Counted from the stretch's first letter, positions 10,601 through 59,519 are shown. The stretch is 64,000 nt of DNA from a virus (IMGVR_UViG_3300018083_000001); one strand, 5' to 3'. Notes: generated from the sequence alone by a model not told the origin. Program-made: numbers and translations.

Positions 10601-13127
10601 TGACCGATGCACCAGCAAGCGCCACGACCGGAATGGACCTGCCGTCCCAGGTGGTGTAGCCGCTGGCTGCCGGAGGTCCACCTAGGAAAGGACCGTTAAA
10701 ATTTACGTTGAATACTTCGCCTTGATTGAAGGTGGCAATTCCGAGCGATTGCTGAACGCCACTGAGACCAGCATGACCTACTGTCTTCCAGATGCCGTTC
10801 TGCGTGATGTTGCGGAAATAACAGCGACCAGAACCAGTATCAACTGCAATGCCGAACCAATCACCCGCAACAGTGTTCGTCTTATCAATCGTCCCGACCT
10901 GGGCACCATTGATGAAGATATTGCCAGCGACATATATGCCAACTGAATTATTGTCGGAACCTAAATAATTGGTTAATGCCGCCGAGGCATTTGCGATACC
11001 GACCCCATCACCGGAGAGGCCAACACCGCCGCCAGCCATCTGAGCTTCAGCATAAAACTTAGTGGTAGATGCATCATTGAGAATTGAAAGAGACAACCGA
11101 TAATTAGAGGTCGCTGAAGTTCGAGTTGCCGTCAAGTAATTGTTAGATAGAGTAATGTCCGACAACGCCGTGCGACTTGAATCGAGGTACGCTCCAGAAA
11201 TAGTCTGAAACGTTCCAGCAGACAGCGTTGCTGATGCGCCAGGAAGATTGACCGTGATCGTAGAAACAACCGAGGTCCCAATCGTGCCTGCCGACATCGT
11301 AGCAGACGCGCCAGGAATATTAATAAATGGAGAGATCGAAACCGACAATGCCTGAGCGGACGCAGTGACCTGCGCACCGATCAAGTTTGGCTTGGTCAAT
11401 ACCTCTTGAGCGTCTAAAGCACCGGCGCTTGCCGTGACCGAGATGCCGGGAACATTGACATTGGTCGTTGCCGTTATCGCGCGGATATTATATTCGTTAT
11501 ACTTCAGAGTGCCATTGTCGTTGACAATGTAGCCAACAACATAGTTACTACCGCGCGCATACATACTGCCGCTGGAGCTGCGCGACAGGCCAGCATCTGT
11601 GTTAGGAACTGTTCCAGCAAATGCTAATACTGGAGAACCAAACGTCGCGCCATCGTTCGATGATTTAATCGCGTAAAGGTCGCTATCCGATGAATTGCGA
11701 TAAGCAATAGTTACTTCATCGGTATCAATATCCACGCCGATGCGATGCGGCGTTGAAGCAGCCGCAATACTTTGATTTGCAGTAGTAAGCGTCGGATTAT
11801 CCGAACTGTCAAAATACACGGTCTGCTGCGCAGCACCGACAGAAACGGTTGCAACAACTTTGGTGGTACCTGACCGGTCGTAGCTAACAGCATCGCAAGG
11901 ACCACCCCAAGCTCCTTGCGATACCGCCGTATTCATCGTATTGGCGGCTGACAATGTCCTAATACTATTAACTGATGCGGCTGGCTGAAACAAAAAATGG
12001 ACTCTGTCAGCAGCACCCAAGACTGCTGTCGGAGCTGAAGTATCAATTGCAGTATTGCCATCAACCTGGGTTTCTGTAGACCAAGTGTTGACCGCTGTGC
12101 GGCGACGATAATAAATGCGGGCACGGAACGTGCCTGAAGTCTTGGTCTGCAAACCATTATAGAACGCAACGACCTCGCCGTTACCGCGAACAACAAGCGA
12201 AGCATTAGCATTAGCGCCAGAAATTTGACCAGCTACAGAACCCGCTGCTGAGACCGTTTCCACAGTAGCAAGAAAAGTATCTGTTAGCGCATCAAATGAA
12301 AGATACTTGACCGCTTGAGACGTTGACGCCGTGCCGTCTTGCACCAGCAAATGAACCGTATAGCCAACCTGATACGCATCAACCCTCAGGATCGCGGTAG
12401 TGAAGCCGGTCTTGGTAGTAACACTCGCCCACGATGTATCCGGCGCGGTGGCCTTGAACGCCTGCAGCGTCGTACCAGTCGTACCATCGCGGCCAAAGAA
12501 GTAATATTGATCTGAAGCGACCGTGACAGCCTTGTAATAAGTGATCGCATAGTCGAATGGCGCGGCACTCTGACCAGCTAGATTGGCAACGGTGTTGCTG
12601 CTGCCATCAAGCGGCGTATAAGCCAGACCGCCGGTAATGTCGTTGACTGCATTGCCGACAAAACGAACACTATTCGCAGCACCAGAAGTAAGGATATAAA
12701 ACACAAGCGCGTACTGAGTTAAATTTGTCAGCGCAACCGGAGTAGCGAAATGAAACGAAATAGTAGTATTGCCGCCATTTGCAGTTAAGGTGCCTGAGAC
12801 TAAATCACTGGTCCCCAACACTGTACCAGTAGGAGCACCGACCGATAAGCTTGCGTGGTCCCTGAGCTCAACGTAACAATTTGCAATAGGAACGGCGGGA
12901 AGGCCAGTCCCCGCCAGTATGATTGAAACATCACTTAAACTATAACCAGGCGATGGCGTAAATGTCTGAGCCGCGATGTGTGAAGTAAATGCACCAGCCG
13001 TCACGTTGTTAGTTGTGGTCGTTACTCCACTTTGACCAACCGCGCTATAAGTCCCAGCCGCCACCTTGAATGGCCCGGCTGGCGCAACCGCCGTCGAGAT
13101 ACCAGTGATGGTGACGGGCAGTGCCAT
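7611..13127 (-). CDS. giant multi-domain virion-associated protein (Asp-box region, 3 SPRY-like modules, C-terminal short-repeat fibre)
   Basis: Single 1838-aa ORF whose ATG overlaps the upstream stop (TGATG). It has an Asp-box (SSNDGATF). Three ~207-aa modules each carry LSNNYLTAT. The C-terminal part holds ~25 units of L(T/I)GAQVTASAG-type repeats. Confidence 0.85.
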   Translation of the reverse strand: MALPVTITGISTAVAPAGPFKVAAGTYSAVGQSGVTTTTNNVTAGAFTSHIAAQTFTPSPGYSLSDVSIILAGTGLPAVPIANCYVELRDHASLSVGAPTGTVLGTSDLVSGTLTANGGNTTISFHFATPVALTNLTQYALVFYILTSGAANSVRFVGNAVNDITGGLAYTPLDGSSNTVANLAGQSAAPFDYAITYYKAVTVASDQYYFFGRDGTTGTTLQAFKATAPDTSWASVTTKTGFTTAILRVDAYQVGYTVHLLVQDGTASTSQAVKYLSFDALTDTFLATVETVSAAGSVAGQISGANANASLVVRGNGEVVAFYNGLQTKTSGTFRARIYYRRRTAVNTWSTETQVDGNTAIDTSAPTAVLGAADRVHFLFQPAASVNSIRTLSAANTMNTAVSQGAWGGPCDAVSYDRSGTTKVVATVSVGAAQQTVYFDSSDNPTLTTANQSIAAASTPHRIGVDIDTDEVTIAYRNSSDSDLYAIKSSNDGATFGSPVLAFAGTVPNTDAGLSRSSSGSMYARGSNYVVGYIVNDNGTLKYNEYNIRAITATTNVNVPGISVTASAGALDAQEVLTKPNLIGAQVTASAQALSVSISPFINIPGASATMSAGTIGTSVVSTITVNLPGASATLSAGTFQTISGAYLDSSRTALSDITLSNNYLTATRTSATSNYRLSLSILNDASTTKFYAEAQMAGGGVGLSGDGVGIANASAALTNYLGSDNNSVGIYVAGNIFINGAQVGTIDKTNTVAGDWFGIAVDTGSGRCYFRNITQNGIWKTVGHAGLSGVQQSLGIATFNQGEVFNVNFNGPFLGGPPAASGYTTWDGRSIPVVALAGASVTMSAGTFRGYAGTILNPDRKFPDLVLSNNYLTATRPNAAGTLASVLSTPTHGSTKVYAEVHLDTASGTFGVGVATTTFDVTNGSGFIGQGTDSIGLYGATAYYNGVSAGITVSPAVGTGDWIGIAVDRIAGTIQFRNITGAGSWSATVSISSITSGEICFASTFANQFDAFTANFDGAFLGTPPASGYSTWDGKAIAGGVNLPGASVTMSAGTLGAYPATFFNPDRTFPTIILSNNYLTATMVSGDFSDRLAFSTLNAVGTTKIYAEVQFTGGGGGPSSSIGVANASALVTPLAAYLGWDNNSIGFWTGSGRPVYVGGSNVGTHDKVIAAGDWYSVSADTSAATVSVRNITQNGAWNTFSISALGGGRLSLAIDLRLNGEVFNAKFDGTFLGAPPASGYTTWDGKSIAVSSVSVNLTGASVTASAGSLAQQRVFLTGAQVATFAGSIAPTTARLVSLTGAQASASAGSLAITEAKPLVGASCSASAGTLTTLKFTPANLAGAGCTFSAGTFQFAVVLARVYVSWVEVKGVSAVSTVTNVAVPGIQVSASAGSIRETISKTLPGALCTASPGILTVAKVQPVGLVGAQATATPGLLSVTKAVAVTFTGAQAATTAGVFRLSDTFALIGAQVTSTAGTITATTVSTTFVSLTGAQVTISAGVLAQPVTKVLTGASVTAQAGTLITSIAKLVALTGAQTTASAGTFGIGDVFAFVGAQVTAQIGSLVVNTASTANVAVPGAQVTASPGIISLAARPPTLIGVEATAQAGAMAALVAKVVALTGAQVTASPGSFGVSDIFALLGAQVAASAGTITSAAASTISVNIQGAFVTTFAGTLSAPTTKAVSLIGVQATTSAGLFTVSQAITAVLSGIQVQVTAGAIFARVSAFAIQGAQVQAQAGILLRGARLLGSFVTASAGNLTRFDVKGFLIGAAATAQAGVIFSEIIVPSDIAADHVANVLDESTIALPMIESHSVLVIAESRMALVLIDEDAASVIQQQ
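7770..9370 (-). repeat. degenerate coding tandem repeats (18-24-aa units, about 25 copies, with a ~4-unit super-repeat)
   Basis: Read from the protein, e.g. VALTGAQTTASAGTFGIGDVFAF / VGAQVTAQIGSLVVNTASTANVA / VPGAQVTASPGIISLAARPPT / LIGVEATAQAGAMAALVAKV. This 4-unit block recurs at least 3 times. Coordinates are approximate. Confidence 0.75.
9370..11200 (-). repeat. three tandem ~620-nt coding repeats encoding SPRY/B30.2-like (concanavalin-like) modules
   Basis: The LSNNYLTAT anchor occurs near 11135, 10515 and 9895. Each module also has K.YAEV, GVG(V/I)A, NS(I/V)G and GDW.G(I/V)A(V)D ... RNIT. Coordinates are approximate. Confidence 0.6.
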
Positions 13128-13480
13128 CAGCCCTGCTCGATCAGTTCGCGACCCCGCTCAAAGATGCCCTTGGGCACCACACCATTCTTCACTGCCAGTT
13201 TCCTGCCTGCTCGGTCGCTGTTACGGAACATTTCTCGGCAATCATATTGACGACATTCGTAGGGCGCACGCTCGTGAATCGAGCAACCACGTTCATTGAG
13301 GTAACAACAATCTCCGTTCGGCAGTCGGTCGAGGATCGTGATGGGCTCTTTGTCCAGCCCGTCGCGGTACCATTTCGCGGTATTATATTGGCTGGCATCA
13401 TCGCCCATCTCCGGACGTATCACGGTCATCATCCGGCAGCACAGCTTGCAGGAACCACACGGGACAACATTGCGGTTCAT
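13127..13480 (-). CDS. YkgJ/UPF0153-type Cys-cluster protein (family that includes flagellin lysine-N-methylase FliB)
   Basis: 117 aa from ATG 13480, in an ATGA overlap with the upstream stop. Motifs are PCGSCKLCC (CxxCxxCC) plus CCYLNERGCSIHERAPYECRQYDC. Confidence 0.75.
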   Translation of the reverse strand: MNRNVVPCGSCKLCCRMMTVIRPEMGDDASQYNTAKWYRDGLDKEPITILDRLPNGDCCYLNERGCSIHERAPYECRQYDCREMFRNSDRAGRKLAVKNGVVPKGIFERGRELIEQG

Positions 13481-16400
13481 GATACTGCGCCGGTCCAAAC
13501 CCAGCCGGTGCTGGAACCATGATTAGCCGTCAAAGCGTTCCACTGTGCGGCGTTACCGTAAAAGTCAAAAAGTGGAGTCCCATAGGCGCTATGCGATGTT
13601 GTTGGATTGACCAGAACGCCCGTCGTAGGATTACAGAAATTATTCTGAACGGTTGAATTACCAACATCAGCAGTAACGCCAGTCCACATCGCAGCCCGAT
13701 ACATGAGGCCATTGAACGGGAATATACCTTCACGCGAGCCTATCGCAAATGAAGAACCTCCAGCCGTGAACTCAAAATCAAGCGTACTACCTGAAGTATC
13801 ATCGACACCGTCATTGACCCATGCACCAGAACCCTCACGCCACACGCGTATCTTCGACGTGCCATCAGCATCGAGTGAGATAAGAATGTTAGCTCGCTCA
13901 GCGCCAATCACCGTAGTGTTATTCATAATAATTGGAGCAGCGGCAGCGGTATCCCGCCAGATAGTGCTGAGTGAACCCGATAGTGCTGGATGTCGGCAAG
14001 TGCCACTGGTACCACCTAACTGTGATATTAGATAATTAGGGTCTGCGCCAACAACAGAAGCAAAATCAACGCTTATGAAAATCAACGCCGTTCTGCCATC
14101 AGTCGGAGCAAGCTGCGTGCTCTTAGTCAACCAAGTGCTTCCATTAAACGTCACGCCATTCTCGGTGAACTCTGCTCCTGTAATGCTGAATGAACCAGCA
14201 TAGGCTCTGGCTTGAACGCCACGCAGACCGCCAGTCGGCCAAAGCGGCTCAGCCACGTCATAGAACAATTTTGTCCAGTTGGTCGTATCACCCCATTTGA
14301 CGTAATCATAATTTGAAGAGTTCCAGATCGGCGGGGCTGGTGGACGAACTTGCCCTTCCTCATCAATCCATCGCTTCAGGTACACAAAGAACGAATCATA
14401 ACCCCAACGTCCAACTTCACTAGCCAGAACCAAGGCGATTGCTAATCCTGAACAGCTCTGCGAACCGATGATCTGATAAGTAGCCGAATTGTGATGTTGA
14501 TAAGCACTACCGCTAGCAGGAGCAGGCGAGAATGCCGAGCCTCTGCGAACTTGGTAATAACTTGTATTGTCTGGCTGCGTCGTCCACGGAGCAGTGACCG
14601 TTGCGACCTTGGTACTGGAGTTCCAGCCTGATGAAGCCACCGTCCGCATCTGTCCTTCACCCGTCCCGGACCAGATGAAGATATGATCACCAGCTATGAT
14701 GCTGGGCGATTTGTCGGCTTGCAGAGTAATGGTCGATGTACCACCCGTCTGCGCCTTGCCACCGCCGTCAGTGAACGCTTGAAACGGAGCAACGAGCAAC
14801 TGCTTAGTTGTGTCGTTATAATGAATCATCTCGGCCTGTTGTCCGGAACCAGTGCCGCCGGTGATCTCCATGTTGTAAAAAAGCGAAGGGTTTCCGCTAT
14901 CAGCGTTAAGTGAAGCTGCAAGCTGGATCGAATCAGCCGTCCCGCCCTGAGCTATACCATAGCCCTTAACTATTCCTGTCGGATCGGTAAGGCCATAAAC
15001 AACATCCCGTGTCTCATGGTTATCGGGATAAGTCTTTGGCGTTCCCAATGTCGGATTAGCCCTGGAGCCATACAGGTCTTCATGGGCGCCATACCAGAAG
15101 GCACCATCCTCGTGATAGAACTCTTGGTCAGGATAAATACCTGCAGTGACGTTTCCAGGTTTCACACACATCGCCGGGACATTAAGGAACCGTCCAGCAA
15201 AGAATGCCAAGCCCTTCATGCCTGGACCAAAACCACCCAGCGCGATATTGCAAGGCATATTCAGCGCGACATGCGAATAGGCCATCAAGCCATCACGCAC
15301 GATGCGGTTGATAAGTTCATTTCGGCTTGGGCTATCTGACAACGCCCCAAGAATCATTCTGTTGGTATTTATTGCTTGGTACGCTGGATAGGCAAGTTGC
15401 GATCTGACAGGACACCATGACGTGTAGTAAACAATCGGTCCAAATCTTACCAGAGGCCGTTCATGGAATGGGTCAAGCATGTTATACCCGTTCCAGTTTG
15501 GCTCCTCGTATCCGACTGGCCGCGTGACCGGCGTGTAAAGGCTATAGTTGATATCGCTAGTGGTGTATGTCGGCTTGCCTGGCGATGCGACATAAAGACC
15601 AGTCGGCTTAATCGCATTGGCTGGTGGAGCACTCGCCACTACAGTGATCTCAAGAATGTTATAGCAAGCGTTGTACGCGCCGCCGCTTTGTACATTGTCG
15701 CAGCCGCGATAAAGCCAAATTGTCTTTGGACTCCCGTCTGGATAATGATCAATTGTTGCTGGTAAACTTATCGACAAGGCTGCGCTATAGTTACTTCCAG
15801 GACCAACATTGCTAACAGGATGCACTCGATCATCCATCCCCTGCAACAAACCTTGGGGATCGACCATGACCTTGCCCTTGTAGGAACCAAGACCCACGTA
15901 AGCAAGGTCACCAGTTGGAGCGACGGCTCCAGTCGTATCAATACCAAAGTTCAACAACCTTGCGCCGCCAGAAGGCGCAACAACCCACGGGCTGCCATCG
16001 ACGTAGACGCCGGTTGTAGGTTTTCCGCTGAATACTGCAGTGATCCCATCACGAGAAACAAACGTGAATGAATCCCATAGATCGCACATCCAACCGTTGC
16101 CAGACCCACCGAAGCCCTTTATGTCACGGTGGAACTTGCCACTTCCGACAAAGGTCGAGAAGTCTGTGCTATCGTCGAAGTAACGACCCCAATTTTCCCA
16201 CATCTTGGGATCGTTTAGATATCTTCTGGCAAACGCTGCAACCGATCCGTTTCCGCCCCAGGAAGCTTCATCTCCCATGATGGCCGAGGCCATGAACAAT
16301 CCCTGATGGCCGTATTGATTGGCAGCCATATAAGTTCCAAGCCAATTCGGCTCATTTGGATCAAACAGTTGGTTATAAGTGCCCTCACGAGAATTTGGAA

Positions 16401-18378
16401 AGTCTGGATTCCAGATAATGAATTTGTCTGTAGTATCAGGATTAGCCGAGAAGGCTGAGTTGACTGTTAATACCCTTGTCGTTCCGTTATAAGCGGTGCA
16501 AGTTTTCTTCTCATAGCTTCCGTCTATGTAGCCATAGATGGTTCGACCAACGAACATACCATCAACATTAAACAAAGTCGGGTATAACACCTCGTTGACT
16601 ATCTTAAATGTTGTGGCGTTTGCTGAATTAACTTGAACAAAATCACAGTAATATAATGGCTGATCCTTGTATGGATAAACATCATAGGTCAGACTTGGAT
16701 AACGCGCCGTTCCATTGCCGCCCTGACCGGCTGAATAATCCTGGAATGCCGTATCCCCGAACAGCGGATAGTCTCCAGTATGCCCAGCAGGCATCGTGTA
16801 TGCCACTGACGGAGTAGCACACCAGAACGTGCGAGTCTGCTCGCCCCATTTGTAGACGGTTTCACCAAAAAGATTTATCTTGCCAGTGGAAATGCTTGCG
16901 GCATTCTTCATACCAGTGTCGTTGAACAACAAGCCGGCAAACCGAATGAGCCAAAGCGGAGTGATAAAAAAACCTGCGCCGCACGAGAACGGTGCAGCAC
17001 CAACAAACTGAGCTACTGCATAAGCATCAATAGCAATCTGGATGAGACGCTTCAGGAATTTGTCTCGATCAGAAACATCGTGCAACACGTAACAGGCCAA
17101 CTTGCCCCAGGAACCGCCACGGTCGCGTGGATACCAATTCATATTCATTGCCGGAGACAGCATAGTATAACCGTTACGAGCAGTGCGATGCGGGGTGATA
17201 AAGTATTGCAAATCCTCGCATGACTCTTTGCGCATCTGCTCGTACTGAGTCATGAACGGAATGTAACCGCCATCAGCACCGATATAAACCGAGTCATCAT
17301 CAATGTGCCAAGCGTCAGAAGTAATGCCCTTAGGATTAAAAGGCGAGGTCAGATTTGGCAACAGACTGGTATTCAATTCACTGAAACGTCTGCGGGTCTT
17401 TATTGCGCCGTAATAAGCCGGGCGAAATTCATCAGCCCACGGAATGTAGTTGACGACAGTCAAACATGCCATACGCATCAGAGTCTGAACATTTGACGTC
17501 TGTAAATTGTATTGCGTATCGTCCATAGAAACAGAAGAGACGAGAGAGTCGCCTGGGTGCAAAACCGAACCATTGGTGTGGGCGTTATAAGATGCGTCAT
17601 AATCGATGGCGTTAGCATACGGACCATGCGGCAATAAAGTAGTATCGTTCTCAGTCGCCCTTCCGTCATAACCCTGCTTCATGGTCGTAGTGTAGCCATT
17701 ACCATCCAGCGCCACTTCAACCATCGTGTTGAACGTCGGATTTATCATTCCGCCGTTCTTTGTATTGACTCCTGTTCCGCTTGGAGGAGTGGACATTGTC
17801 GGCATCGGCAGTGTCGTGGCCGTGTAGACCCAGACATCGCCGTTGACATAAGTGCCATTGGTCACTGTGCCAGGGAACGTCCAGGACATCCCATTCGGAG
17901 CAGTCACCGTCGTCGTCCCACCAACAGCCGGATTGGCCGTGAACTCAAGCTCAAGATTATTGAAATTGGTAATCGCTGCAAGTTGCGGGGCCGTCAATGT
18001 TTGCACAACAGTAGTGAATGTTGCAGAAATGCCGGTATGCGTCCAACTGACGATCTCAGTGCTACCCTGCATCAACCGAACGAGCAAATCTGCTACGCCA
18101 CCAGATCCTGATTTTGCGTAGCGATAGCTGACCGTGACCGGATCGACCAATGTCGTACCGCCAGCAAGATTACCGAGGCTGACTCGGCACGTATCATTAG
18201 CGGCTAGCGATGATTGGATATAATCAGCATCATTGATTGATGCCTCATCAATGTACGAGAACAAATTGGCGCCAGCATCCTGTCCAGCCCAAGTGCCATC
18301 GCTCACATCAGCATCAGGCCTCATAAATGCATAAATAATGCTGCTTCGATAACCAAAGAATATTTTAAACTGCGACAT
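13477..18378 (-). CDS. giant virion-module protein with C-terminal LamG/concanavalin-like domain
   Basis: 1633-aa single ORF. The C-terminal ~180 aa (TALIFISVDF ... RVWREGSGAWVNDG ... FAIGSREGIFPFNGLMYRAAMWTGV) fits the LamG_3 pattern. I did not recognise the central region. Confidence 0.8.
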   Translation of the reverse strand: MSQFKIFFGYRSSIIYAFMRPDADVSDGTWAGQDAGANLFSYIDEASINDADYIQSSLAANDTCRVSLGNLAGGTTLVDPVTVSYRYAKSGSGGVADLLVRLMQGSTEIVSWTHTGISATFTTVVQTLTAPQLAAITNFNNLELEFTANPAVGGTTTVTAPNGMSWTFPGTVTNGTYVNGDVWVYTATTLPMPTMSTPPSGTGVNTKNGGMINPTFNTMVEVALDGNGYTTTMKQGYDGRATENDTTLLPHGPYANAIDYDASYNAHTNGSVLHPGDSLVSSVSMDDTQYNLQTSNVQTLMRMACLTVVNYIPWADEFRPAYYGAIKTRRRFSELNTSLLPNLTSPFNPKGITSDAWHIDDDSVYIGADGGYIPFMTQYEQMRKESCEDLQYFITPHRTARNGYTMLSPAMNMNWYPRDRGGSWGKLACYVLHDVSDRDKFLKRLIQIAIDAYAVAQFVGAAPFSCGAGFFITPLWLIRFAGLLFNDTGMKNAASISTGKINLFGETVYKWGEQTRTFWCATPSVAYTMPAGHTGDYPLFGDTAFQDYSAGQGGNGTARYPSLTYDVYPYKDQPLYYCDFVQVNSANATTFKIVNEVLYPTLFNVDGMFVGRTIYGYIDGSYEKKTCTAYNGTTRVLTVNSAFSANPDTTDKFIIWNPDFPNSREGTYNQLFDPNEPNWLGTYMAANQYGHQGLFMASAIMGDEASWGGNGSVAAFARRYLNDPKMWENWGRYFDDSTDFSTFVGSGKFHRDIKGFGGSGNGWMCDLWDSFTFVSRDGITAVFSGKPTTGVYVDGSPWVVAPSGGARLLNFGIDTTGAVAPTGDLAYVGLGSYKGKVMVDPQGLLQGMDDRVHPVSNVGPGSNYSAALSISLPATIDHYPDGSPKTIWLYRGCDNVQSGGAYNACYNILEITVVASAPPANAIKPTGLYVASPGKPTYTTSDINYSLYTPVTRPVGYEEPNWNGYNMLDPFHERPLVRFGPIVYYTSWCPVRSQLAYPAYQAINTNRMILGALSDSPSRNELINRIVRDGLMAYSHVALNMPCNIALGGFGPGMKGLAFFAGRFLNVPAMCVKPGNVTAGIYPDQEFYHEDGAFWYGAHEDLYGSRANPTLGTPKTYPDNHETRDVVYGLTDPTGIVKGYGIAQGGTADSIQLAASLNADSGNPSLFYNMEITGGTGSGQQAEMIHYNDTTKQLLVAPFQAFTDGGGKAQTGGTSTITLQADKSPSIIAGDHIFIWSGTGEGQMRTVASSGWNSSTKVATVTAPWTTQPDNTSYYQVRRGSAFSPAPASGSAYQHHNSATYQIIGSQSCSGLAIALVLASEVGRWGYDSFFVYLKRWIDEEGQVRPPAPPIWNSSNYDYVKWGDTTNWTKLFYDVAEPLWPTGGLRGVQARAYAGSFSITGAEFTENGVTFNGSTWLTKSTQLAPTDGRTALIFISVDFASVVGADPNYLISQLGGTSGTCRHPALSGSLSTIWRDTAAAAPIIMNNTTVIGAERANILISLDADGTSKIRVWREGSGAWVNDGVDDTSGSTLDFEFTAGGSSFAIGSREGIFPFNGLMYRAAMWTGVTADVGNSTVQNNFCNPTTGVLVNPTTSHSAYGTPLFDFYGNAAQWNALTANHGSSTGWVWTGAVS

Positions 18379-31842: not shown

Positions 31843-32418
31843 ATGCCCAGTTTCATAAAAGCTGAAAAGCCTAGTCAAGATAAGCTCGACGCAGTCAAGT
31901 CCGATTTGCGGGAAGTCCGTGATCTTCTTATCGAGAAGCAAAACACGGAAGAACATCTCACTGAGCTTAACAAAAGCATCAACGATAAAATCCGCAACTC
32001 GCTCCCTACTATCTTTCAAGAGACGGGGATTACATCCCTGACCCTTGAACCCACCGGCAACCTCCCGGCTTACAGTGCTAAGCTTGACACAGAGGTTAAG
32101 GCAGGAATAACCAGGGAATTCACGCCAGAGCAACGGCAAGACGCGATGGACTGGCTCGTTGCTAATGGTGCGGACAGCTTAATAAAATCTGTCATCACCA
32201 TAACCCTCGATAGGAATGAATACGATAAAGCCCTCAAACTCGTCAAAGAGTTTAAGGCTAAGGGCCTCGATGTTAGCCTCGATACGACCGTTCATTGGGC
32301 AACGCTTTCCTCTTGGCTACGGGAACGCTTCGAGGCGCAAGACCTCCCGCCAAACATCGTAACAATCGGCGGTACCATCTCACCGATCGTCAGGATCACT
32401 GCCAAGAGGTCCAAATGA
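31843..32418 (+). CDS. hypothetical early protein
   Basis: 191 aa with an AGGA RBS and a coiled-coil N-terminus. Confidence 0.6.
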   Translation: MPSFIKAEKPSQDKLDAVKSDLREVRDLLIEKQNTEEHLTELNKSINDKIRNSLPTIFQETGITSLTLEPTGNLPAYSAKLDTEVKAGITREFTPEQRQDAMDWLVANGADSLIKSVITITLDRNEYDKALKLVKEFKAKGLDVSLDTTVHWATLSSWLRERFEAQDLPPNIVTIGGTISPIVRITAKRSK

Positions 32419-32717
32419 GAAGTCAAGCGGAACGCGATATGCGTAAGTTCTTTGATGAGAAGCTTTATGCTCTCATTGAAGATTTTCGCTGGCGATGCGA
32501 CTTCATTGATATTGAACCGACTGTTGCTGCTGCTATGATGGTACGGGCACTAGTCCGTCCCGCTATGGCTATGATGTTGATCCACGGAAGCGACTCAAGA
32601 AGCGCGGAGGAAATATCTGAAATCCTCCGTACAATGGTGCATCAAGTTGCTAAAGAACTTGATGTTGTTGACGCTAGAATTAAATCCAACCGACGTTCAA
32701 ACAAGAAGGAAACCTAG
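32415..32717 (+). CDS. hypothetical protein
   Basis: 100 aa from ATG 32415, in an ATGA overlap with the upstream stop. Confidence 0.55.
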   Translation: MRSQAERDMRKFFDEKLYALIEDFRWRCDFIDIEPTVAAAMMVRALVRPAMAMMLIHGSDSRSAEEISEILRTMVHQVAKELDVVDARIKSNRRSNKKET

Positions 32718-32718
32718 A

Positions 32719-33537
32719 ATGGCTAAGAATGGTAACAATACCGCCTTGAAAGTCAAGGACAAGGAGCAACTCCCCGCAACAAATACCGTCTCCGATGATT
32801 TTCTTAAGGAGATGCTTGCTGATGCTGGTGAAGGCACAACGCAAGCAGCCGAAGATAATCTTGTTCCTTTGCTGTATGTTCTGCAAGGCCTGTCTCCTCA
32901 AGTCAACAAGCGCAATGACGCCTACATCGAAGGCGCAGAGGTTGGCGACATATGGCTGAAGAATGCACCGCAGCCGGTCTTCAAGGGCAATGAAGGTGTT
33001 ATCTTTATCCCTTGTCATTACTCCCGATGTCACGTTGAATGGATCCCACGAGACAGCGGTGGTGGCTTTGTGACGCGACACTTTACTATTCCAAAGGAAG
33101 CCATCGATACTGGAGAAAAGGCCGCAGGCAAGCCAATCTACGAGATGCCAAACGGTAACACGCTCGTTGATACGGTCAACCGGACCGGCTTCGCGATTAT
33201 GCCGGACGGATTGGCGTTGCCATATATGATCCCGATGAAGTCTACCAACATTACTGTATCCAGGGCTTGGAACAGTATCATCAACCAGAAGCAAAAACAC
33301 GGCTTGATTCTTCCAAGCTACTCGTGGCGTTACCGTCTCACCACGGTCTATCGAAAGAACGACAAGGGCGAATGGTATCTCTTGCATGCTGAAAATGATC
33401 GTGAATTAAACGACAGCGAACGTGAATTGTACCGCCAATGCAAGGCCCTCAAGAAAGCTTGCGACGGCAACAAGGTCACTGGCGAAGCGGAAGAAGGACA
33501 CGGCAATATCCGTGAAGATGCCGACGCACCGATGTAA
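32719..33537 (+). CDS. hypothetical protein with acidic C-terminal tail (possible ssDNA-binding/annealing role, unverified)
   Basis: 272 aa from ATG 32719 with an AAGGAAAC RBS. The C-terminus is GEAEEGHGNIREDADAPM. Confidence 0.55.
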   Translation: MAKNGNNTALKVKDKEQLPATNTVSDDFLKEMLADAGEGTTQAAEDNLVPLLYVLQGLSPQVNKRNDAYIEGAEVGDIWLKNAPQPVFKGNEGVIFIPCHYSRCHVEWIPRDSGGGFVTRHFTIPKEAIDTGEKAAGKPIYEMPNGNTLVDTVNRTGFAIMPDGLALPYMIPMKSTNITVSRAWNSIINQKQKHGLILPSYSWRYRLTTVYRKNDKGEWYLLHAENDRELNDSERELYRQCKALKKACDGNKVTGEAEEGHGNIREDADAPM

Positions 33538-34361: not shown

Positions 34362-35278
34362 TAATCGTCGGCGCGGGATTAGCGGGATTGCTCGCCGCTA
34401 ATATGTTACAGCGGCGTCATTCAGTAACGGTCGTTGAGCAACAAGAGCATATCCCCAACAACCATAGCGCAGTGCTTAGGTTTAGGACGCCAATAATAGG
34501 CGATGTGTTAGGTATCCCGTTCCGCAAGGTCAACATGATTAAGTGTCCCGCAGAATGGCGCAATCCTGTGATCGATGCGCTCGCCTACTCCTACAAATGT
34601 ACGGGACAGTATCGTAGTGACCGCTCCATCACGAGCGGACTGGTCGTTGAGCCGCGCTACATAGCACCACCAAATCTGATAGATCGAATGGCTAACAGTA
34701 TCAATCTCAAGCTCAACAATCGGTACGATCATGGTTTGGGCGAGATCAACATCCCGGTTATCAGTACGCTACCGATGCCCAAGCTTATGGAGATGCTAGC
34801 CTATCCTGAAGCGCCAGACATAACAGAGTTCAAGTCAATCAAGGGCTACAACGTCCGCGCCAAAATCGCCGATTGTGATTCATTTATCAGCCTCCTTATC
34901 CCGGACCCAAACATCCCGATCTCCCGCATCTCGATAACTGGAGATGAAATGATCATCGAGGTACCAAGAGCAAGAACACCAGAACAAGTAAGCGCCAAGT
35001 GGATCGCTTCTGCGGCTATCGAGCTACTCGGCATAAGCTCAAATCAAGTTATGGAGGTAACACTTCATGAACAAAAATACTCAAAGATCACGCCCATTGA
35101 CGATGACGCACGCAAACGCTTCATCGCCTGGGCGACAGACCATCACAATATCTACTCGCTTGGACGCTTTGCTACGTGGCGGCCTGATTTACTACTTGAT
35201 GACCTTGTTAACGACATAAGACTAATCGACAAATGGCTAGGACAACATCACGGTTATGATCGAAAGGAACGAAAATGA
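34358..35278 (+). CDS. FAD/NAD(P)-binding Rossmann-fold oxidoreductase-like protein
   Basis: 306 aa. The N-terminal dinucleotide-binding motif is MIIVGAGLAGLLAA ... VTVVEQ. C-terminal SLGRFATWR resembles the amine-oxidase / UDP-galactopyranose-mutase type. Confidence 0.7.
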   Translation: MIIVGAGLAGLLAANMLQRRHSVTVVEQQEHIPNNHSAVLRFRTPIIGDVLGIPFRKVNMIKCPAEWRNPVIDALAYSYKCTGQYRSDRSITSGLVVEPRYIAPPNLIDRMANSINLKLNNRYDHGLGEINIPVISTLPMPKLMEMLAYPEAPDITEFKSIKGYNVRAKIADCDSFISLLIPDPNIPISRISITGDEMIIEVPRARTPEQVSAKWIASAAIELLGISSNQVMEVTLHEQKYSKITPIDDDARKRFIAWATDHHNIYSLGRFATWRPDLLLDDLVNDIRLIDKWLGQHHGYDRKERK

Positions 35279-36018
35279 AAGTTACAGTCGTTGATTACAC
35301 CGGCGCAGGACTTGATGACCGCTGGTACGCCGCCAAGAAGCTAATCCGCGCCAAGAACACCCGCGTCCATACCCCAATGGACATGGATAGCTTGTCGCAA
35401 GAGGAGCTATTAGACCAACTCAAGGCCGTCGCAATGACGATCCGTAGTTCTTGGGAGTTTGTCAACATCACGTTCAAGATCGAGGACATCTCCCGCGCTT
35501 GTTGTGACCAGATGACACGCTCCAGAGTTGGCGTATCTTTTGCCGTGATGGCGCAGCGCGTTGTGGATAACTCTCATTTCAAATATGTAATGCCCGACTC
35601 AATCAAGAAGAACAAAAAGCTTCTAGAGGTTTTTGAGATGCACATGGTCTCAACAGCTTTCCTCTATTCGGTATTCATCAAGGAAGGTATCCCAGCGCAG
35701 GACGCTCGCAGTATATTGCCGATGGCGACATACTCTCCATTGACCGCGGAGTACAACTTGCGCTCACTCGCAGGTGTCGTAGCCAAGCGCGAGAACCTCA
35801 GAGCCCAAGGCGAGTATGCGAGTGTCGCAGCGGAGATGAAGCGTCTCACCATACAACTATGGCCTTGGGCGGATATGTTTCTCTCTCCTGAAGGTACACG
35901 CACACCGGCCATTGACAAAATCATGAAGGATGCGCTTGGTGATCGCTCGCCTGTCGAGAAGCCAGAGCTCAATGACGCGCTCAAGGAGCTAGACCTTCTC
36001 AAAAAGACGTGGGACTGA
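35275..36018 (+). CDS. thyX: ThyX-like flavin-dependent thymidylate synthase homologue with altered signature motif
   Basis: 247 aa in an ATGA overlap with the upstream gene. It has ARSILPMAT and NLRSLAGVVAKRENLRAQGE like ThyX. The RHR-x7-S-QRY signature reads RSR-VGVSFAV-M-A-QRV. Confidence 0.65.
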   Translation: MKVTVVDYTGAGLDDRWYAAKKLIRAKNTRVHTPMDMDSLSQEELLDQLKAVAMTIRSSWEFVNITFKIEDISRACCDQMTRSRVGVSFAVMAQRVVDNSHFKYVMPDSIKKNKKLLEVFEMHMVSTAFLYSVFIKEGIPAQDARSILPMATYSPLTAEYNLRSLAGVVAKRENLRAQGEYASVAAEMKRLTIQLWPWADMFLSPEGTRTPAIDKIMKDALGDRSPVEKPELNDALKELDLLKKTWD

Positions 36019-54610: not shown

Positions 54611-54771
54611 GAGACAATCGGCTCGCCCCACCTTGGAACTGGCATCACGAGTTGCACCAGATCACAGGCGCGATAGCCCGACACGGCAGTAAGATCGACA
54701 AAGAGCTAGTCAAGCAATGGATCGAGGCAATGAAGAAGATCACCAAGTCAATGCGGGAGGAAATAAAATGA
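54607..54771 (+). CDS. possible 54-aa protein
   Basis: My own translation gives MRDNRLAPPWNWHHELHQITGAIARHGSKIDKELVKQWIEAMKKITKSMREEIK. It has ATGA overlaps at both ends. Confidence 0.35.
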   Translation: MRDNRLAPPWNWHHELHQITGAIARHGSKIDKELVKQWIEAMKKITKSMREEIK

Positions 54772-55118
54772 GACGGGTTCTGGTCTGCGGTGGGCGAGAC
54801 TATACAAACAAAACGCTTTTGTATCGCAAGCTTGATGAGGCGCATGAGTTTAGCTCCATCGTTTGCGTAATCTCTGGGATGGCGCCAGGAGCCGATACCT
54901 TGGCCGCTGAATGGGCGAAGGAACGCGGCATAGAACTCGTACCGTTCCCTGCGGACTGGTCGAAATATAGCCGCGCCGCAGGACCAATAAGAAACGCAAA
55001 GATGCTCGTCGAAGGGAAGCCTGATGTTGTTATGGCGTTTCCCGGCGATAAGGGCACTAAGGATATGATTAAGCGAGCGACCAAGGCAAAGATACCCGTT
55101 GTTCAAATCCGTGTATGA
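54768..55118 (+). CDS. SLOG-superfamily protein (DUF2493 / YspA-like)
   Basis: 116 aa from ATG 54768 with a GGGAGG RBS. Motifs: VLVCGGRDY, ISGMAPGADTLAAEWA, AAGPIRNAKML and MAFPGDKGT. Confidence 0.7.
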   Translation: MRRVLVCGGRDYTNKTLLYRKLDEAHEFSSIVCVISGMAPGADTLAAEWAKERGIELVPFPADWSKYSRAAGPIRNAKMLVEGKPDVVMAFPGDKGTKDMIKRATKAKIPVVQIRV

Positions 55119-55128
55119 TGAGGAGATT

Positions 55129-55338
55129 ATGACTGACATTGTTGAACGGCTGCGCAAACGCGCCAATGATGAGTTCGTACAGGATCACCCGATCATGCTT
55201 GAAGATGAGGCCGCCGACGAGATCGAGCGGCTGCGCAAGGCACTCGAAAAAATCTACCACATGGCGGATAACTGGAATGACGACTGGGACGCAATGAAGC
55301 AGATAATCAACGATGCAACAAAAGGACCACAAACATGA
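55129..55338 (+). CDS. hypothetical acidic protein
   Basis: 69 aa from ATG 55129 with a GAGGAG RBS. Confidence 0.5.
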   Translation: MTDIVERLRKRANDEFVQDHPIMLEDEAADEIERLRKALEKIYHMADNWNDDWDAMKQIINDATKGPQT

Positions 55339-55871
55339 ATAGCTATTTGCGGATGGCGACGCTATCCGTTGCGCTACTCTCAACAACACCTGGCGATGCT
55401 GCGGTGTTGACGTACACATACCAAGGACAGCCATTGTTTTACGGTTCAAATTCAACAGTAGGCTGGACCGGACAATTTAGCATTGATGAAGCTCTCCTGC
55501 TGGGAGGCTCACTAGCAAACACGACACATTCCTTCAATTGGGAGGCGAACTCCGTGCTGCCTAATTGGGCCCCTGGAATCAGCTTGAGCTATGGCCCACT
55601 AATCGTCACGAGCAATATTGGACGAGGGCACTTCTCAATAACATTCGACGCTGACCAACACATCATAGCTTGGGAGGGATACAATACGTTTGGATATATT
55701 GATCCGTACACCAGAAATGGAATTGACGGATGGTCTCAAGGCTTTGCGCAAAGCATCGTCCCTGGTACTTGGACTGGTGGTCCTACGGTTGCGGCTGTAC
55801 CTTTACCAGCGACGTTGCCGTTGTTTGCGATTGGTCTTGGGATGCTTGGTCTATTCGGGAGGCGCAAATGA
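55335..55871 (+). CDS. secreted protein with VPLPA-CTERM / PEP-CTERM-type sorting signal
   Basis: 178 aa. The signal peptide is MNSYLRMATLSVALLSTTPGDA. The extreme C-terminus is VPLPATLPLFAIGLGMLGLFGRRK. Confidence 0.7.
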   Translation: MNSYLRMATLSVALLSTTPGDAAVLTYTYQGQPLFYGSNSTVGWTGQFSIDEALLLGGSLANTTHSFNWEANSVLPNWAPGISLSYGPLIVTSNIGRGHFSITFDADQHIIAWEGYNTFGYIDPYTRNGIDGWSQGFAQSIVPGTWTGGPTVAAVPLPATLPLFAIGLGMLGLFGRRK

Positions 55872-56095
55872 AACTATATCCGTGGGATGAGGTTATTGAA
55901 AAGTGTGAATTGATCCTAGCACAAGGCGGAGCCATTTACCAACAATTCAACTGCCAGCATTGCGGACGTAAACAAACAATGGACAAGCCAAATAGCTTTT
56001 ACATTGCTGGTATATGCGAGGAGTGTGGAGGAACGACCGACATTAAAAAGAACGGGATGAACTATATGATTCATCTTGGCGCTAAGGTGAAATAA
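55868..56095 (+). CDS. zinc-ribbon protein
   Basis: 75 aa from ATG 55868 (ATGA overlap), with CQHCGRK ... CEECGG. Confidence 0.55.
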   Translation: MKLYPWDEVIEKCELILAQGGAIYQQFNCQHCGRKQTMDKPNSFYIAGICEECGGTTDIKKNGMNYMIHLGAKVK

Positions 56096-56121
56096 AAAAG
56101 GGGAGGCGATTAAGCCTCCCC
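56094..56121. terminator. bidirectional intrinsic terminator between convergent genes
   Basis: AAAAAA-GGGGAGGC-GATTAA-GCCTCCCC. On the minus strand the hairpin is followed by TTTTTT. Confidence 0.7.
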
Positions 56122-56128
56122 AATTCAT

Positions 56129-56908
56129 TTAAGCCGCAGCGAGAAGCTTCTGCTGTTGCTTACGACGACGCAACTTCAACATACCGAGTCCAGCGATGCC
56201 TGAACCAAAGAGCCAGACGGCTCCTGGAACAGGTACTGCCTGCACAGCCGGGACGATGAAGAATGAGTCAGGACCATCATTCGTATTCGTCATGCGAGCA
56301 AAGAACGCATACTGATGATTTGGATCAAGGCTAGCGGTCGTCAGACCATTGAGCAAATAGTCAGGAAAGCCCGTCCCATTGTTAAGGGTCGGAAGTGCGA
56401 TGTCATCGGCCAAAGCCGGCAAGAACGACGCGATGACCGTGTGTGAAGTAAGATCGAGGAAGAAGAACGACTCCAACACCTGTGCGCCCTGCCCATTGGC
56501 TTGGTTCACATCAATGCCGATGGAGAACGCATTCTGGCCGCCCAGTGCAGTGATCAGGTTGATGATCTGCTGACCGCTGTAGTTGACCGCAGAGATAGTG
56601 TCGGTAGCAAGGTTCGTGTCCCTGAGAATACCAGAAGAGAAGTAAGTCTCAGAGGTCTGGTTGCCTTGGTTGCCGTAGTCCGTGTAACCAAAGTTCTGGT
56701 CGATGTTAGTCTGATTTGGTTGGTTCGCTCCGCAAATAATGCAAGGAGCATTCTGCGGTTGATTCCCAGCCGGTACACCGCCCAGTGTCAGATCTGTGCC
56801 ACCAAGTGTCCAGACTTGGCCGCCGAGAGTGCGAGTGGCCGCCTGTGCGGGAAGAAGAGAGAGAACAAGCAACGACGCTGCCACCGCAGCGCCAAAGAGA
56901 CTTTTCAT
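56129..56908 (-). CDS. secreted protein with PEP-CTERM-type sorting signal
   Basis: 259 aa from ATG 56908. The signal peptide is MKSLFGAAVAASLLVLSLLPAQA. The C-terminus is VPVPGAVWLFGSGIAGLGMLKLRRRKQQQKLLAAA. The longer track start would run through an upstream terminator. Confidence 0.7.
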   Translation of the reverse strand: MKSLFGAAVAASLLVLSLLPAQAATRTLGGQVWTLGGTDLTLGGVPAGNQPQNAPCIICGANQPNQTNIDQNFGYTDYGNQGNQTSETYFSSGILRDTNLATDTISAVNYSGQQIINLITALGGQNAFSIGIDVNQANGQGAQVLESFFFLDLTSHTVIASFLPALADDIALPTLNNGTGFPDYLLNGLTTASLDPNHQYAFFARMTNTNDGPDSFFIVPAVQAVPVPGAVWLFGSGIAGLGMLKLRRRKQQQKLLAAA

Positions 56909-56996
56909 TGGAGTTACCTCTGGTGAGAGTTGTTCGAACAACACAAGGCTATCACAAGGTTGTGACAGGCGGTAGTAAATCTTTTCATTGTAAAAC

Positions 56997-57025
56997 AAAA
57001 AAAGCCCCAGCACTCGGCCAGGGCT
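56997..57025 (-). terminator. intrinsic terminator ending the lysis operon
   Basis: Minus strand reads AGCCCTGGC-CGAGT-GCTGGGGCT (9 bp including 2 G-U pairs) followed by TTTTTT. Confidence 0.6.
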
Positions 57026-57042
57026 AGTCACGGAGGGGAAAG

Positions 57043-57150
57043 TTAGTAATCTCTAGAGTTAATCCAAATCAACAAGAGGATCACAAAGATACCAAGCGCT
57101 CCAACAATGCCGCCAAAAATAATCCAGAAGTTGATTGTTTCATAAGTCAT
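57043..57150 (-). CDS. possible 35-aa membrane peptide
   Basis: My own translation gives MTYETINFWIIFGGIVGALGIFVILLLIWINSRDY. It is in an ATGA overlap with the upstream stop. Confidence 0.4.
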   Translation of the reverse strand: MTYETINFWIIFGGIVGALGIFVILLLIWINSRDY

Positions 57151-57365
57151 TTCGGCGGAATGATGCACTGACTCAGAAGCTTTTGCACCTCCTTTTGCAC
57201 GTCAAGAAATAACTTGACGTTTTCAGCGCGTTGATTATTGAACTGAGCAGATTGCAGATAAACAAATCCTATCAGCGAGAAGATCACCAGCAATAGCCCA
57301 AGCATCAGCGGTTGCGCCTTTAGCACGTCCAACAATGCACCGATATTGCTACCATGTCCGTTCAT
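57147..57365 (-). CDS. membrane protein (lysis-cassette component)
   Basis: 72 aa with one TM segment (PLMLGLLLVIFSLIGFVYL) followed by a helical tail. ATGA overlap. Confidence 0.55.
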   Translation of the reverse strand: MNGHGSNIGALLDVLKAQPLMLGLLLVIFSLIGFVYLQSAQFNNQRAENVKLFLDVQKEVQKLLSQCIIPPK

Positions 57366-57643
57366 TTGCTTCTGTCCCTTAAGAATTCATTGACAACGCG
57401 TAGCAGTTGCGCCTCGTTGCTTTTGACTTGTTGTTCAAGGACCGTGATGCGCTCCTCCATCTTTGCCATCCGCGCCACGGAATATTCCGCACCACGCGTC
57501 TCCATTATTGACACGCGTGTTTCCAGCTTGACTGAGTAAGCAAGGATCGCCGCTGCTGCTGTTGCAAGAGCCACGGCTTGCGCCCCCAGAAAGAGTATCA
57601 ATGTTTGGTTCTCCCCGAACCATGACTTGATATCTTTCACCAT
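57362..57643 (-). CDS. membrane protein with coiled-coil (i-spanin-like or holin-associated)
   Basis: 93 aa from ATG 57643 (TGATG overlap). One TM segment is followed by a coiled-coil. Confidence 0.5.
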   Translation of the reverse strand: MVKDIKSWFGENQTLILFLGAQAVALATAAAAILAYSVKLETRVSIMETRGAEYSVARMAKMEERITVLEQQVKSNEAQLLRVVNEFLRDRSK

Positions 57644-57855
57644 CAACGGACTAAGGGTCGGCCAGTATCGACGATGCCGATCATATCAAGCAGAAGGAGG
57701 ATCAGGATGAGTACGCAAACCACGGTTATCACGACCCGCGCGATTTGCTTGAATGGCGCCATCATTGGCAGATTGTCGACCAGGTATATTAACAACCAAG
57801 CAACGACGCCAAGCACGATTAGGTAGACGACGAAGTGGATCAAGGTATTGATCAT
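57643..57855 (-). CDS. holin-like two-TM protein
   Basis: 70 aa with two hydrophobic helices, a strong AGGAGG RBS, and a position immediately after the endolysin. Confidence 0.6.
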   Translation of the reverse strand: MINTLIHFVVYLIVLGVVAWLLIYLVDNLPMMAPFKQIARVVITVVCVLILILLLLDMIGIVDTGRPLVR

Positions 57856-57870
57856 TTGTGGCCTCCTGTT

Positions 57871-58989
57871 TCATGAAACTGGTACGCCATTGACGGTTAC
57901 TATTACGTCTCCTGTTATCTCGATATTGACGCGCGCCTCCACGACTGGCGGATGCGGCATCGGTCCTGGTATTGGCGGCCGTGGTGTCGATGGAGGTATT
58001 GGCTCTGGGATTGGCGGCATTGGCATTGGTGGTCGCGTTGGCTTCGATACTTCACCGCCAAGGTGATCCGCCAAGGCGGCACATATCTGATTGAAGTTCA
58101 TTTCATACTGCGCCGTGTCCGCCTCGCTGTCCACGAAACAAACCTCGAGCAATACCGCTGGCGCTGATGTCTTGTTGAGGAAGAACAAATCAGTCCGCTT
58201 CTTTGGACCGCGATTGATAAAGCCACCGGATTCAGAGATGACCTTGGATAGCTCTGTCGCTAGGGATTGCTGTGTCACGTACAATACCTCCGTGCCCATG
58301 GGTTTGCTAGTTGTCTGGTACGCATTGAAGTGAACGGATATGTCGAGTTGCCGCGTCTTGCTATTGTGGAAGTCAACTATGCGATTAAGGTTCTCGCTTT
58401 GCGTCTTGGACACATCATCATGGAACGTGACGACATTGCAGCCGCGCATGCGTAGCTCCAAGGCGAGCTTCTCCACGACACTTCTAGCTTCGTCAACTTC
58501 ATCGAGGTAGCCAGAAGCACCACGGACATATTTGCCGTGTCCAGAGGACATCACGATAGAATTATAGATGCCCATGTCAGCCTCTTCTGGTAATTCATAC
58601 GGGAAGGTCACTTCAACCTCATCGTCTGTCTCAATGCCCAATGCCGCCATAAGCCCAGGCGATAAATCCGCAACACGGCCAGTATCCTTATGCGGTCCCC
58701 AGTCCGCAGGATAGGCCATGAACTGTTTGCCGGTCTTTGGCGAGCGTACCAATGCCATAATGCCGAGCAATTCATTCTTTGATGTCTCATCATAGTCCCA
58801 GCGGCAAGCAACATAGAACTCTTCTGGGTTCAATCTTCTTGCGAGGCCTGTTGTTCCTGGAGGCTGATGCGGCAGGAATAGATGCGGCGCATCCGCCACC
58901 TCATAGATGAACGCCAGTCCCTCGCTTGGCGATACTCCCGTATCACGGGGACCACCAAAGTGCGAACATTTGCCGGTGATTGTTCTCAT
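57871..58989 (-). CDS. endolysin: RlpA/DPBB-like domain + N-acetylmuramoyl-L-alanine amidase (Amidase_3) + Pro-rich C-terminal tail
   Basis: 372 aa from ATG 58989 (ATGA overlap). Motifs: GKCSHFGGPRDTG ... ADWGPHKDTGRVADLS; SSGHGKYVRGA ... DISVHFNA ... APAVLLEVCFVDS; then PTRPPMPMPPIPEPIPPSTPRPPIPGPMPHPP. Confidence 0.8.
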   Translation of the reverse strand: MRTITGKCSHFGGPRDTGVSPSEGLAFIYEVADAPHLFLPHQPPGTTGLARRLNPEEFYVACRWDYDETSKNELLGIMALVRSPKTGKQFMAYPADWGPHKDTGRVADLSPGLMAALGIETDDEVEVTFPYELPEEADMGIYNSIVMSSGHGKYVRGASGYLDEVDEARSVVEKLALELRMRGCNVVTFHDDVSKTQSENLNRIVDFHNSKTRQLDISVHFNAYQTTSKPMGTEVLYVTQQSLATELSKVISESGGFINRGPKKRTDLFFLNKTSAPAVLLEVCFVDSEADTAQYEMNFNQICAALADHLGGEVSKPTRPPMPMPPIPEPIPPSTPRPPIPGPMPHPPVVEARVNIEITGDVIVTVNGVPVS

Positions 58990-59519
58990 AGCTTTGCCGC
59001 GCGTAGCCACATCGCTTCCATTGCCTCTGGCGTTGTGTTCTCGGTATTGAGATAGGCCGCCAACCCTTGCACCCATTCATCGTCAATGGAGATCGTCTGC
59101 GCACCAACGAAGAACATATTGGCTTCGAACTCCCGTTCATTCGGCACGTTGGAGGATTTGATGTAGTTATCTATCTCATTGGGCAGTGCGCCAGTCTTCA
59201 TCGTGCCTAACGCAGAATTCTGGGTAATTGAACCCATGTTAGCGAGTTCCTGGTAGAACTGCCTTCTGGAAATTGGCGGTGGCTTCAATGGCGGTGGCTG
59301 GATGTAAGGCATCGTCACGCCGCCCAGCGCGACCCATTCCTGGTACGCGATCCAGTCAGCATTGTCTGGATCATTCGGAATCACTGCGCCATCGTTGCGG
59401 ATCACAGCAGTGCCTTCTGCGTTGGCGAAAGTGTACGTCACCACTTGTTCTTTTGGCTCCGGTGGAGGGATAACAAACGGTGGCGTTGGCGGCATAAAGC
59501 TCCAATCGTCATTCGGCAT
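58986..59519 (-). CDS. hypothetical protein (tail-fibre-associated position)
   Basis: 177 aa with a Pro-rich N-terminus, lying between the fibre genes and the endolysin. Confidence 0.5.
   Translation of the reverse strand: MPNDDWSFMPPTPPFVIPPPEPKEQVVTYTFANAEGTAVIRNDGAVIPNDPDNADWIAYQEWVALGGVTMPYIQPPPLKPPPISRRQFYQELANMGSITQNSALGTMKTGALPNEIDNYIKSSNVPNEREFEANMFFVGAQTISIDDEWVQGLAAYLNTENTTPEAMEAMWLRAAKL

Follow-up and report, generated by a model that had tools for sequence, protein, structure and literature searches.

A stretch of 64,000 nucleotides (nt) from the virus IMGVR_UViG_3300018083_000001, referred to here at its whole length as the window, comes from a tailed soil phage with a genome of ~69.5 kilobases (kb). 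It carries the hallmark genes of such phages, encoding a portal protein, large terminase, head morphogenesis protein, tape measure protein, DNA polymerase, primase, helicase, endolysin and tail proteins, and the same gene arrangement is found on contigs of 69.4-69.6 kb from several samples of different sources. Our subject is a pair of open reading frames (ORFs), A and B, which lie on opposite strands at a junction of converging gene blocks. An earlier note, made from the sequence of the window alone, had proposed that both encode secreted proteins with the sorting signal of exosortase substrates (PEP-CTERM or VPLPA-CTERM), and had named searches with hidden Markov models (HMMs) and the conservation of the C-terminal segments as ways to check this. 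The features of the two genes are as follows.

55335-55871, plus strand: ORF A, 178 residues, predicted secreted protein with a VPLPA-type PEP-CTERM tail
55335-55400, plus strand: predicted Sec signal peptide of A, residues 1-22, MNSYLRMATLSVALLSTTPGDA, with cleavage before the following A
55797-55868, plus strand: sorting tail of A, residues 155-178, with VPLPA motif, hydrophobic helix and RRK
56129-56908, minus strand: ORF B, 259 residues from an ATG with a GAGG ribosome-binding site, predicted secreted beta-sandwich with a VPLPA/PEP-CTERM-type tail
56840-56908, minus strand: predicted signal peptide of B, residues 1-23, MKSLFGAAVAASLLVLSLLPAQA, with cleavage before the following A (...LLPAQA, then A)
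56132-56236, minus strand: sorting tail of B, residues 225-259, with VPVPGAVW, hydrophobic helix, RRRK and then 9 residues

Both ORFs lie at the coordinates given to them earlier and have the ends that had been quoted, A finishing in ...AAVPLPATLPLFAIGLGMLGLFGRRK-stop (also written AVPLPATLPLFAIGLGMLGLFGRRK) and B in ...AVPVPGAVWLFGSGIAGLGMLKLRRRKQQQKLLAAA-stop. Each protein is built of a signal peptide, a passenger and a C-terminal tail in which VP(L/V)P is followed by a hydrophobic helix and a cluster of Arg and Lys. The signal peptides were read from the sequence; that of A is kept in the related proteins P0002-P0004, P0132, P0141 and P0150, and that of B is modelled as a helix and has an A-x-A cleavage site kept across its family. 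PEP-CTERM proteins are recognised by a proline motif, a transmembrane helix and a basic cluster, usually with fewer than 10 residues after it, and this is the arrangement found in both A and B, the basic cluster being the very end of A. Between signal peptide and tail, sequence reading and hydropathy found no membrane helix in either protein. A and B have nothing in common outside the tail, as had been claimed.

Each protein passes one curated PEP-CTERM model: A scores 25.9 bits on the Pfam family PF07589 (gathering score 20.7) and B scores 17.9 bits on TIGR02595 (cut-off 16), on which A stays below threshold with 9.8 bits. The more specific assignment to VPLPA-CTERM (TIGR03370, threshold 25.35) did not come out of the same searches. 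Here A reaches 14.6 bits, with VPLPA literally present in its sequence, and B 18.5 bits, with VPVPG and not VPLPA as its motif. Both resemble the flocculation protein PepA weakly, at 25.5 bits (A) and 20.0 bits (B) against the 80 set for NF033554.

A chance origin of the tails would be rare in this DNA. Of the 422 six-frame ORFs in the window that have 60 residues or more, a regular expression for the three-part tail matches two, namely A and B; it gave 2 matches in 100 triplet-shuffled windows (0.02 per window). The passengers, too, are set apart from the phage's other proteins. Ser, Thr and Asn make up 25-26% of them, versus 19% elsewhere, and Lys and Arg 1.5%, versus 9.9%, with Lys at zero; this composition matches that described for PEP-CTERM cargo by Haft et al. 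2006 (PMC1569441). The AlphaFold model of B, with a predicted local distance difference test score (pLDDT) of 82, is a beta-sandwich flanked by N- and C-terminal helices.

Distribution and modular exchange of the two genes

B belongs to a large, undescribed family that was found in these searches only in viral or phage-like DNA. Its homologues form 602 clusters at 90% identity in metagenomes, and when 1.84 billion cluster representatives were searched in full with HMMER, 396, 161 and 26 clusters (50% identity) came out at expectation (E) values up to 1e-3, 1e-10 and 1e-30, respectively. A scan of IMG/VR yielded 191 viral contigs that encode a B relative, and a motif-based scan of one genome each from 185,579 bacterial and archaeal species yielded zero. 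No match to B was found by tblastn in 50,697 deposited phage records, among PHROG or PADLOC families, or, for the passenger, among Pfam or NCBIfam families; profile searches of PDB sequences found nothing. Three stretches of assembled DNA around B genes were inspected, and each has a phage-like gene content (RecT, YqaJ, methyltransferases, lysozyme or amidase).

Within this viral DNA the B passenger moves between unrelated phages as a unit, exchanging its tail. Across 71 viral B loci the biggest cluster of neighbour genes is common to only 8, and a 95-kb viral contig (L013), compared over 10 kb on each side of the gene, has B alone in common with the window. The ribosome-binding site travels along with the gene. 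On some other viral contigs a PEP-CTERM gene of the FxDxF family directly follows B (L008, 11064-11648; L030, 6841-7413), so that pairs of exosortase-type genes recur with different partners; tblastn did not find this FxDxF-type partner in the deposited phages.

The core of B is strongly conserved; NPCIICGANQPNQTN and NDGPDSFF are among the stretches that do not vary. The three-part tail with its basic cluster is retained in 120 of the 121 close B homologues, as it is in all four close homologues of A, so that the conservation asked of the C-terminal segments is indeed there. What the tail consists of is another matter. Family B carries VPLPA-like tails, PEPxxWA-like tails (VPE.STWAMM...), canonical PEP tails (VPEPGSL...), tails of the type TPLPAS... 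and, in the majority, VP[GLI]P-xx-GAGLPGL...RRRR. VPLPA-CTERM and PEPxxWA-CTERM are each matched by 7 of 40 aligned members, and distant relatives far exceed the cut-offs of these models, at 41.6 bits for VPLPA-CTERM (P0331) and 36.5 bits for PEPxxWA-CTERM. On VPLPA-CTERM the A homologue P0003 scores 22.0 bits and the relative P0297 27.9 bits, both more than A and B themselves. The majority tail follows the pattern VP[GLI]P-x(2-3)-G[AST]G[LFI]P-x(12-16)-RRRR (for example P0017, P0057 and P0082; L016-L029) and may be an exosortase-type signal that has no name as yet.

On a neighbour-joining tree of 119 B cores, sorted into three broad tail classes, the tail class changes at least 21 times, compared with 30-36 times when the classes are shuffled. 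Different tails are found on B cores that are 91-94% identical (P0007 and P0008; P0043 and P0061), and the Pro-x-Pro motif is kept while the sequence of the helix changes completely. Two contigs carry a double tail (L050, 1082-1933; L051, 9579-10430), in which AVPGPTVGA is followed by VPEPATWAMMLLGFAG...RKRR (VPEPATWAMM...); this seems to be what remains of one tail having been replaced by another. Contig content of guanine plus cytosine (G+C) does not separate the tail classes. The tail appears to be under selection yet exchanged among named exosortase signal types.

The slot occupied by A shows the converse exchange: it retains signal peptide and tail and exchanges the passenger. Close homologues of A are only four (P0001-P0004), all with the same signal peptide and VPLPA tail, and tblastn of A against deposited phages gave no match. 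A profile search adds P0132, P0141 and P0150, which have the signal peptide MNSYLRMASLAAALLW and the tail VPLPAALPLFATGLGVMGLLGWRRKRK around an unrelated passenger domain. Three temperate phages, with integrases 86-87% identical and a holin-like protein of 70 residues that is 84-96% identical among them, each have an A-type gene directly after the integrase gene, at a converging junction with the late genes. This is the classical place of lysogenic-conversion genes. Their holin-like protein is 49-53% identical to the protein encoded at 57643-57855 of the window, in which no integrase related to theirs was found.

Two observations belong beside this slot. On the temperate relative L113 (6690-7100) an ORF resembling AlpA or an excisionase and then four copies of GTTACAAAC come after the PEP-CTERM gene; the repeats are probably the integrase arm sites of an attP. 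The distant relatives of A include genes on large bacterial contigs, and on one of these, of 628 kb (L114, 10001-10756), the called gene for P0128 seems to be a fusion of two tandem VPLPA-tail genes. The P0128 tail is nearly identical to the phage A-slot tails, which hints at a host lineage.

Proposed exosortase cargo and its alternatives

We interpret A and B as phage-encoded substrates of PEP-CTERM/exosortase sorting, of the VPLPA subtype, and put the probability of this at about 0.72. The signal peptide would carry each protein through Sec to the periplasm, where the C-terminal helix and basic cluster would hold it in the inner membrane with VP(L/V)P at the membrane surface. The host exosortase would then cut at VP(L/V)P and hand the passenger on to the surface of the cell or into its exopolysaccharide matrix. 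In the 64-kb window no protein with five or more membrane helices, and thus no exosortase candidate, was found, so that the phage would depend on the enzyme of its host. That host is probably an alphaproteobacterium, as both portal protein and tails hint: the closest cultured portal protein is that of Paracoccus phage Pkon1 (50% identity), and among the matches listed, 11 of the 17 confirmed loci with the bacterial tails nearest to that of A are named alphaproteobacterial, several being Rhodobacterales or soil metagenome-assembled genomes. Beside the bacterial VPLPA-tail genes at these 17 loci there are unrelated housekeeping genes and no exosortase gene, which is uninformative either way.

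The purpose would most likely be an altered surface of the infected or lysogenic cell, by analogy with accessory genes of other phages. Examples are Lom and Bor of lambda, Llp of T5 and Cor of phi80 (outer-membrane lipoproteins that block a receptor) and SasX (an LPXTG sortase substrate on a staphylococcal prophage). Like A and B, these are accessory genes at variable sites, often by integrase or lysis genes, whose products use host machinery for export to the surface; they take the Lol, Bam or sortase route, whereas A and B would take that of the exosortase. The change of surface might consist in masking or binding a polysaccharide receptor, excluding other phages or shielding progeny from debris, or in altered aggregation.

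The known systems closest to the pair are the bacterial PEP-CTERM/exosortase (EpsH, Xrt) substrates, in particular VPLPA-CTERM proteins (TIGR03370) and small, beta-rich cargo, for which the flocculation protein PepA of Zoogloea and the families FxDxF and THxN stand as examples. The likeness extends to the signal peptide, to a passenger rich in Ser, Thr and Asn, poor in Lys and Arg and without known homology, to the three-part tail a few residues from the stop, to HMM matches above threshold and, for B, to a single-gene unit with its own leader. In contrast to these, A and B are borne by a phage, the B passenger was not found in the scanned species genomes and is covered by neither NCBIfam nor Pfam, the whole-protein scores on PepA are 20-25 bits versus 80, and a sigma-54 promoter was not seen at B. 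The earlier suggestion that phage-encoded exosortase cargo is undescribed agrees with the literature searched, which holds passing annotations only and no description beyond them. HOG10 of Dehalococcoides IME1 is annotated with a PEP-CTERM-type domain on a mobile element (bioRxiv 10.64898/2026.09.15.751708), and genes of the TIGR03118 family are annotated in Yellowstone viral contigs (PMC11003980). Both cases share with A and B a PEP-CTERM-type domain on viral or mobile DNA but belong to other families, with sorting, modularity and distribution unanalysed. The sorting system and the moron concept (mobile accessory genes of phages) are thus known; their combination is new, as are the two modes of modular exchange and a family that these searches found in viral or phage-like DNA alone.

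Several points weigh against exosortase sorting of A and B. The exosortase step presupposes a host genome that encodes an exosortase (EpsH/Xrt), an outer membrane and genes for exopolysaccharide. About 5.5 kb of the phage genome lie outside the window and may hold an exosortase of the phage's own. B is below threshold on VPLPA-CTERM, as given above, and on PF07589 (16.0 bits versus 20.7), and the VPxP-xxGAGxP tail of about two thirds of its family is undetected by Pfam and NCBIfam models. The motif-based scan of bacterial and archaeal genomes could overlook divergent relatives of B. We know of no exosortase substrate of any phage that has been demonstrated experimentally. The structural evidence adds little: the model of A is unreliable (pLDDT 49.5) and too poor for a structure search, and Foldseek with the model of B gave nothing below an E value of 0.01 in the PDB, so that no fold was assigned. 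In BFVD the B model has weak, low-scoring matches to carbohydrate-binding parts of phage tail proteins (best E value 8.5e-4, template modelling (TM) score 0.16); because these structural matches are insignificant, carbohydrate binding by B is a hint at most.

Some of these same points would suit proteins that are simply anchored. If the tails were mere C-terminal membrane anchors, the proteins would stay in the inner membrane once the signal peptide is removed, with the beta-rich domains in the periplasm, where they might block the entry of DNA from other phages or tune lysis, and no exosortase would cut them. That the commonest tail of family B matches no sorting-domain model and that B falls short on two of the models would then need no explanation, and phage exclusion proteins of the inner membrane are well known. 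A plain anchor has no need of a Pro-x-Pro motif at the membrane surface, yet the motif is kept, and the alternative tails are exactly the named exosortase signals VPLPA, PEPxxWA and canonical PEP; the composition of the passengers also fits surface cargo. We consider simple anchoring unlikely, though it is the most serious of the alternatives.

A role of B in lysis comes next and is much less probable. B is the last gene on the strand of the lysis genes (57043-59076), the region 56900-58000 yielded no lipobox ORF, and a C-terminal inner-membrane helix with a periplasmic domain recalls unimolecular spanins such as gp11 of T1, so that B might be an unusual spanin-like protein. A terminator separates it from the lysis genes, however. 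Spanins are marked by the lipobox of an outer-membrane lipoprotein, or by a type II coiled-coil partner in the inner membrane, within the lysis block, whereas B carries a site for signal peptidase I and lacks the Cys of a lipobox. In other phages the neighbours of B are early or recombination genes and the lysis genes are distant, and the relatives with the holin-like protein of 70 residues have no B within 6 kb of the lysis block. Slightly less probable still, and last in our order, is that A and B are host genes carried along by accident, or the product of an assembly chimera, and do nothing for the phage. Proteins of the PEP-CTERM kind otherwise belong to bacteria, and it is on large bacterial contigs that some distant relatives of A are found. 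Against such a capture, the arrangement recurs in several independently assembled samples, the B core is conserved in the 191 viral contigs with no relative in the scanned species genomes, and the phage genes on either side of A are coupled to it in translation.

Should A and B indeed be exosortase cargo, a wider proposal can be made, which we hold tentatively and at somewhat less than even odds: tailed soil phages would routinely take over the exosortase pathway, B being a virus-restricted cargo whose tails are swapped by recombination to suit the exosortase type of the host and the slot by the integrase a cassette site in which various passengers are set between an unchanging signal peptide and an unchanging tail. 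The pair would then stand for a new class of surface-conversion or superinfection-exclusion genes, and the type of tail could be used as a marker in the prediction of hosts. The exosortase system is widespread in bacteria of soil, sediment and biofilms and is experimentally poorly understood, with few substrates of known fate; the interchangeable tails of family B may serve as natural swap experiments on exosortase recognition. With exosortase cargo, the host pathways that phage accessory genes are known to exploit (Lol, Bam and sortase) would gain a further member. Such cargo would suggest that phages control how cell surfaces or the matrix behave in communities of the soil, and it may help to assign hosts to uncultured phages.

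The junction and the remaining phage genes

Around A and B the following features were found.

55868-56095, plus strand: ORF of 75 residues with a zinc ribbon (CxxC...CxxC), a neighbour between A and the terminator that lies outside the sorting pair
56100-56121: G+C-rich hairpin of 8 pairs, common to both converging units, with a T-run after it on the minus strand only
56909-57002, minus strand: leader of B, 94 nt, with the GAGG ribosome-binding site and two palindromes
57003-57025, minus strand: intrinsic terminator that closes the lysis block upstream of B
57043-59076, minus strand: lysis block, with an Amidase_3 endolysin (57871-59076), a protein of 70 residues that has three membrane helices, and three small membrane proteins of a single helix

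Both genes lie where the early and the late/lysis blocks converge, a junction that is variable, and are best read as mobile accessory genes, or morons. The earlier note had the pair facing each other across a bidirectional terminator. Converging units that share the hairpin are indeed there, but the zinc-ribbon ORF lies between A and the hairpin, so that A does not converge on B directly, and with its T-run on one strand the hairpin is predicted to terminate B. Elsewhere, A-type genes lack this zinc-ribbon ORF as a conserved neighbour. The coupling of A into the plus-strand operon is borne out by its overlaps of the ATGA type on both sides, the start of A overlapping the stop of the upstream ORF and its stop overlapping the start of the downstream one. 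As for B, which had been called moron-like on account of two terminators and upstream palindromes of its own, these elements are real, and with the second terminator (57003-57025) B is a single gene bracketed by two of them.

The leader of B holds a perfect 14-bp palindrome, GTTGTTCGAACAAC, at 56929-56942 and an 8-of-9 inverted repeat, CTATCACAA-GG-TTGTGACAG, at 56949-56968. Both are kept in a close relative (L012). Each occurs once in the window, so that nothing there points to a phage regulator that would bind such palindromes at several places. Neither a sigma-70 nor a sigma-54 promoter could be recognised convincingly in the leader. For proteobacterial PEP-CTERM genes a sigma-54 promoter with an upstream TTTACA motif has been described by Haft et al. 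2006 (PMC1569441); a TTTACA before B was considered as such a motif and judged to be due to chance, as it sits in the T-tail of the terminator and the GG-N10-GC element is absent. In the lysis block itself, the absence of a lipobox ORF means that an outer-membrane spanin is not recognisable.

Away from the junction, no tRNA genes were found in the window. The early region encodes, at 31843-33537, 35275-36018 and 54717-55118, proteins like gp33 and gp34 of Pam3, a ThyX thymidylate synthase and a YAcAr-domain protein. The structural region contains two very large minus-strand ORFs, at 7611-13127 and 13477-18378 (1838 and 1633 residues).

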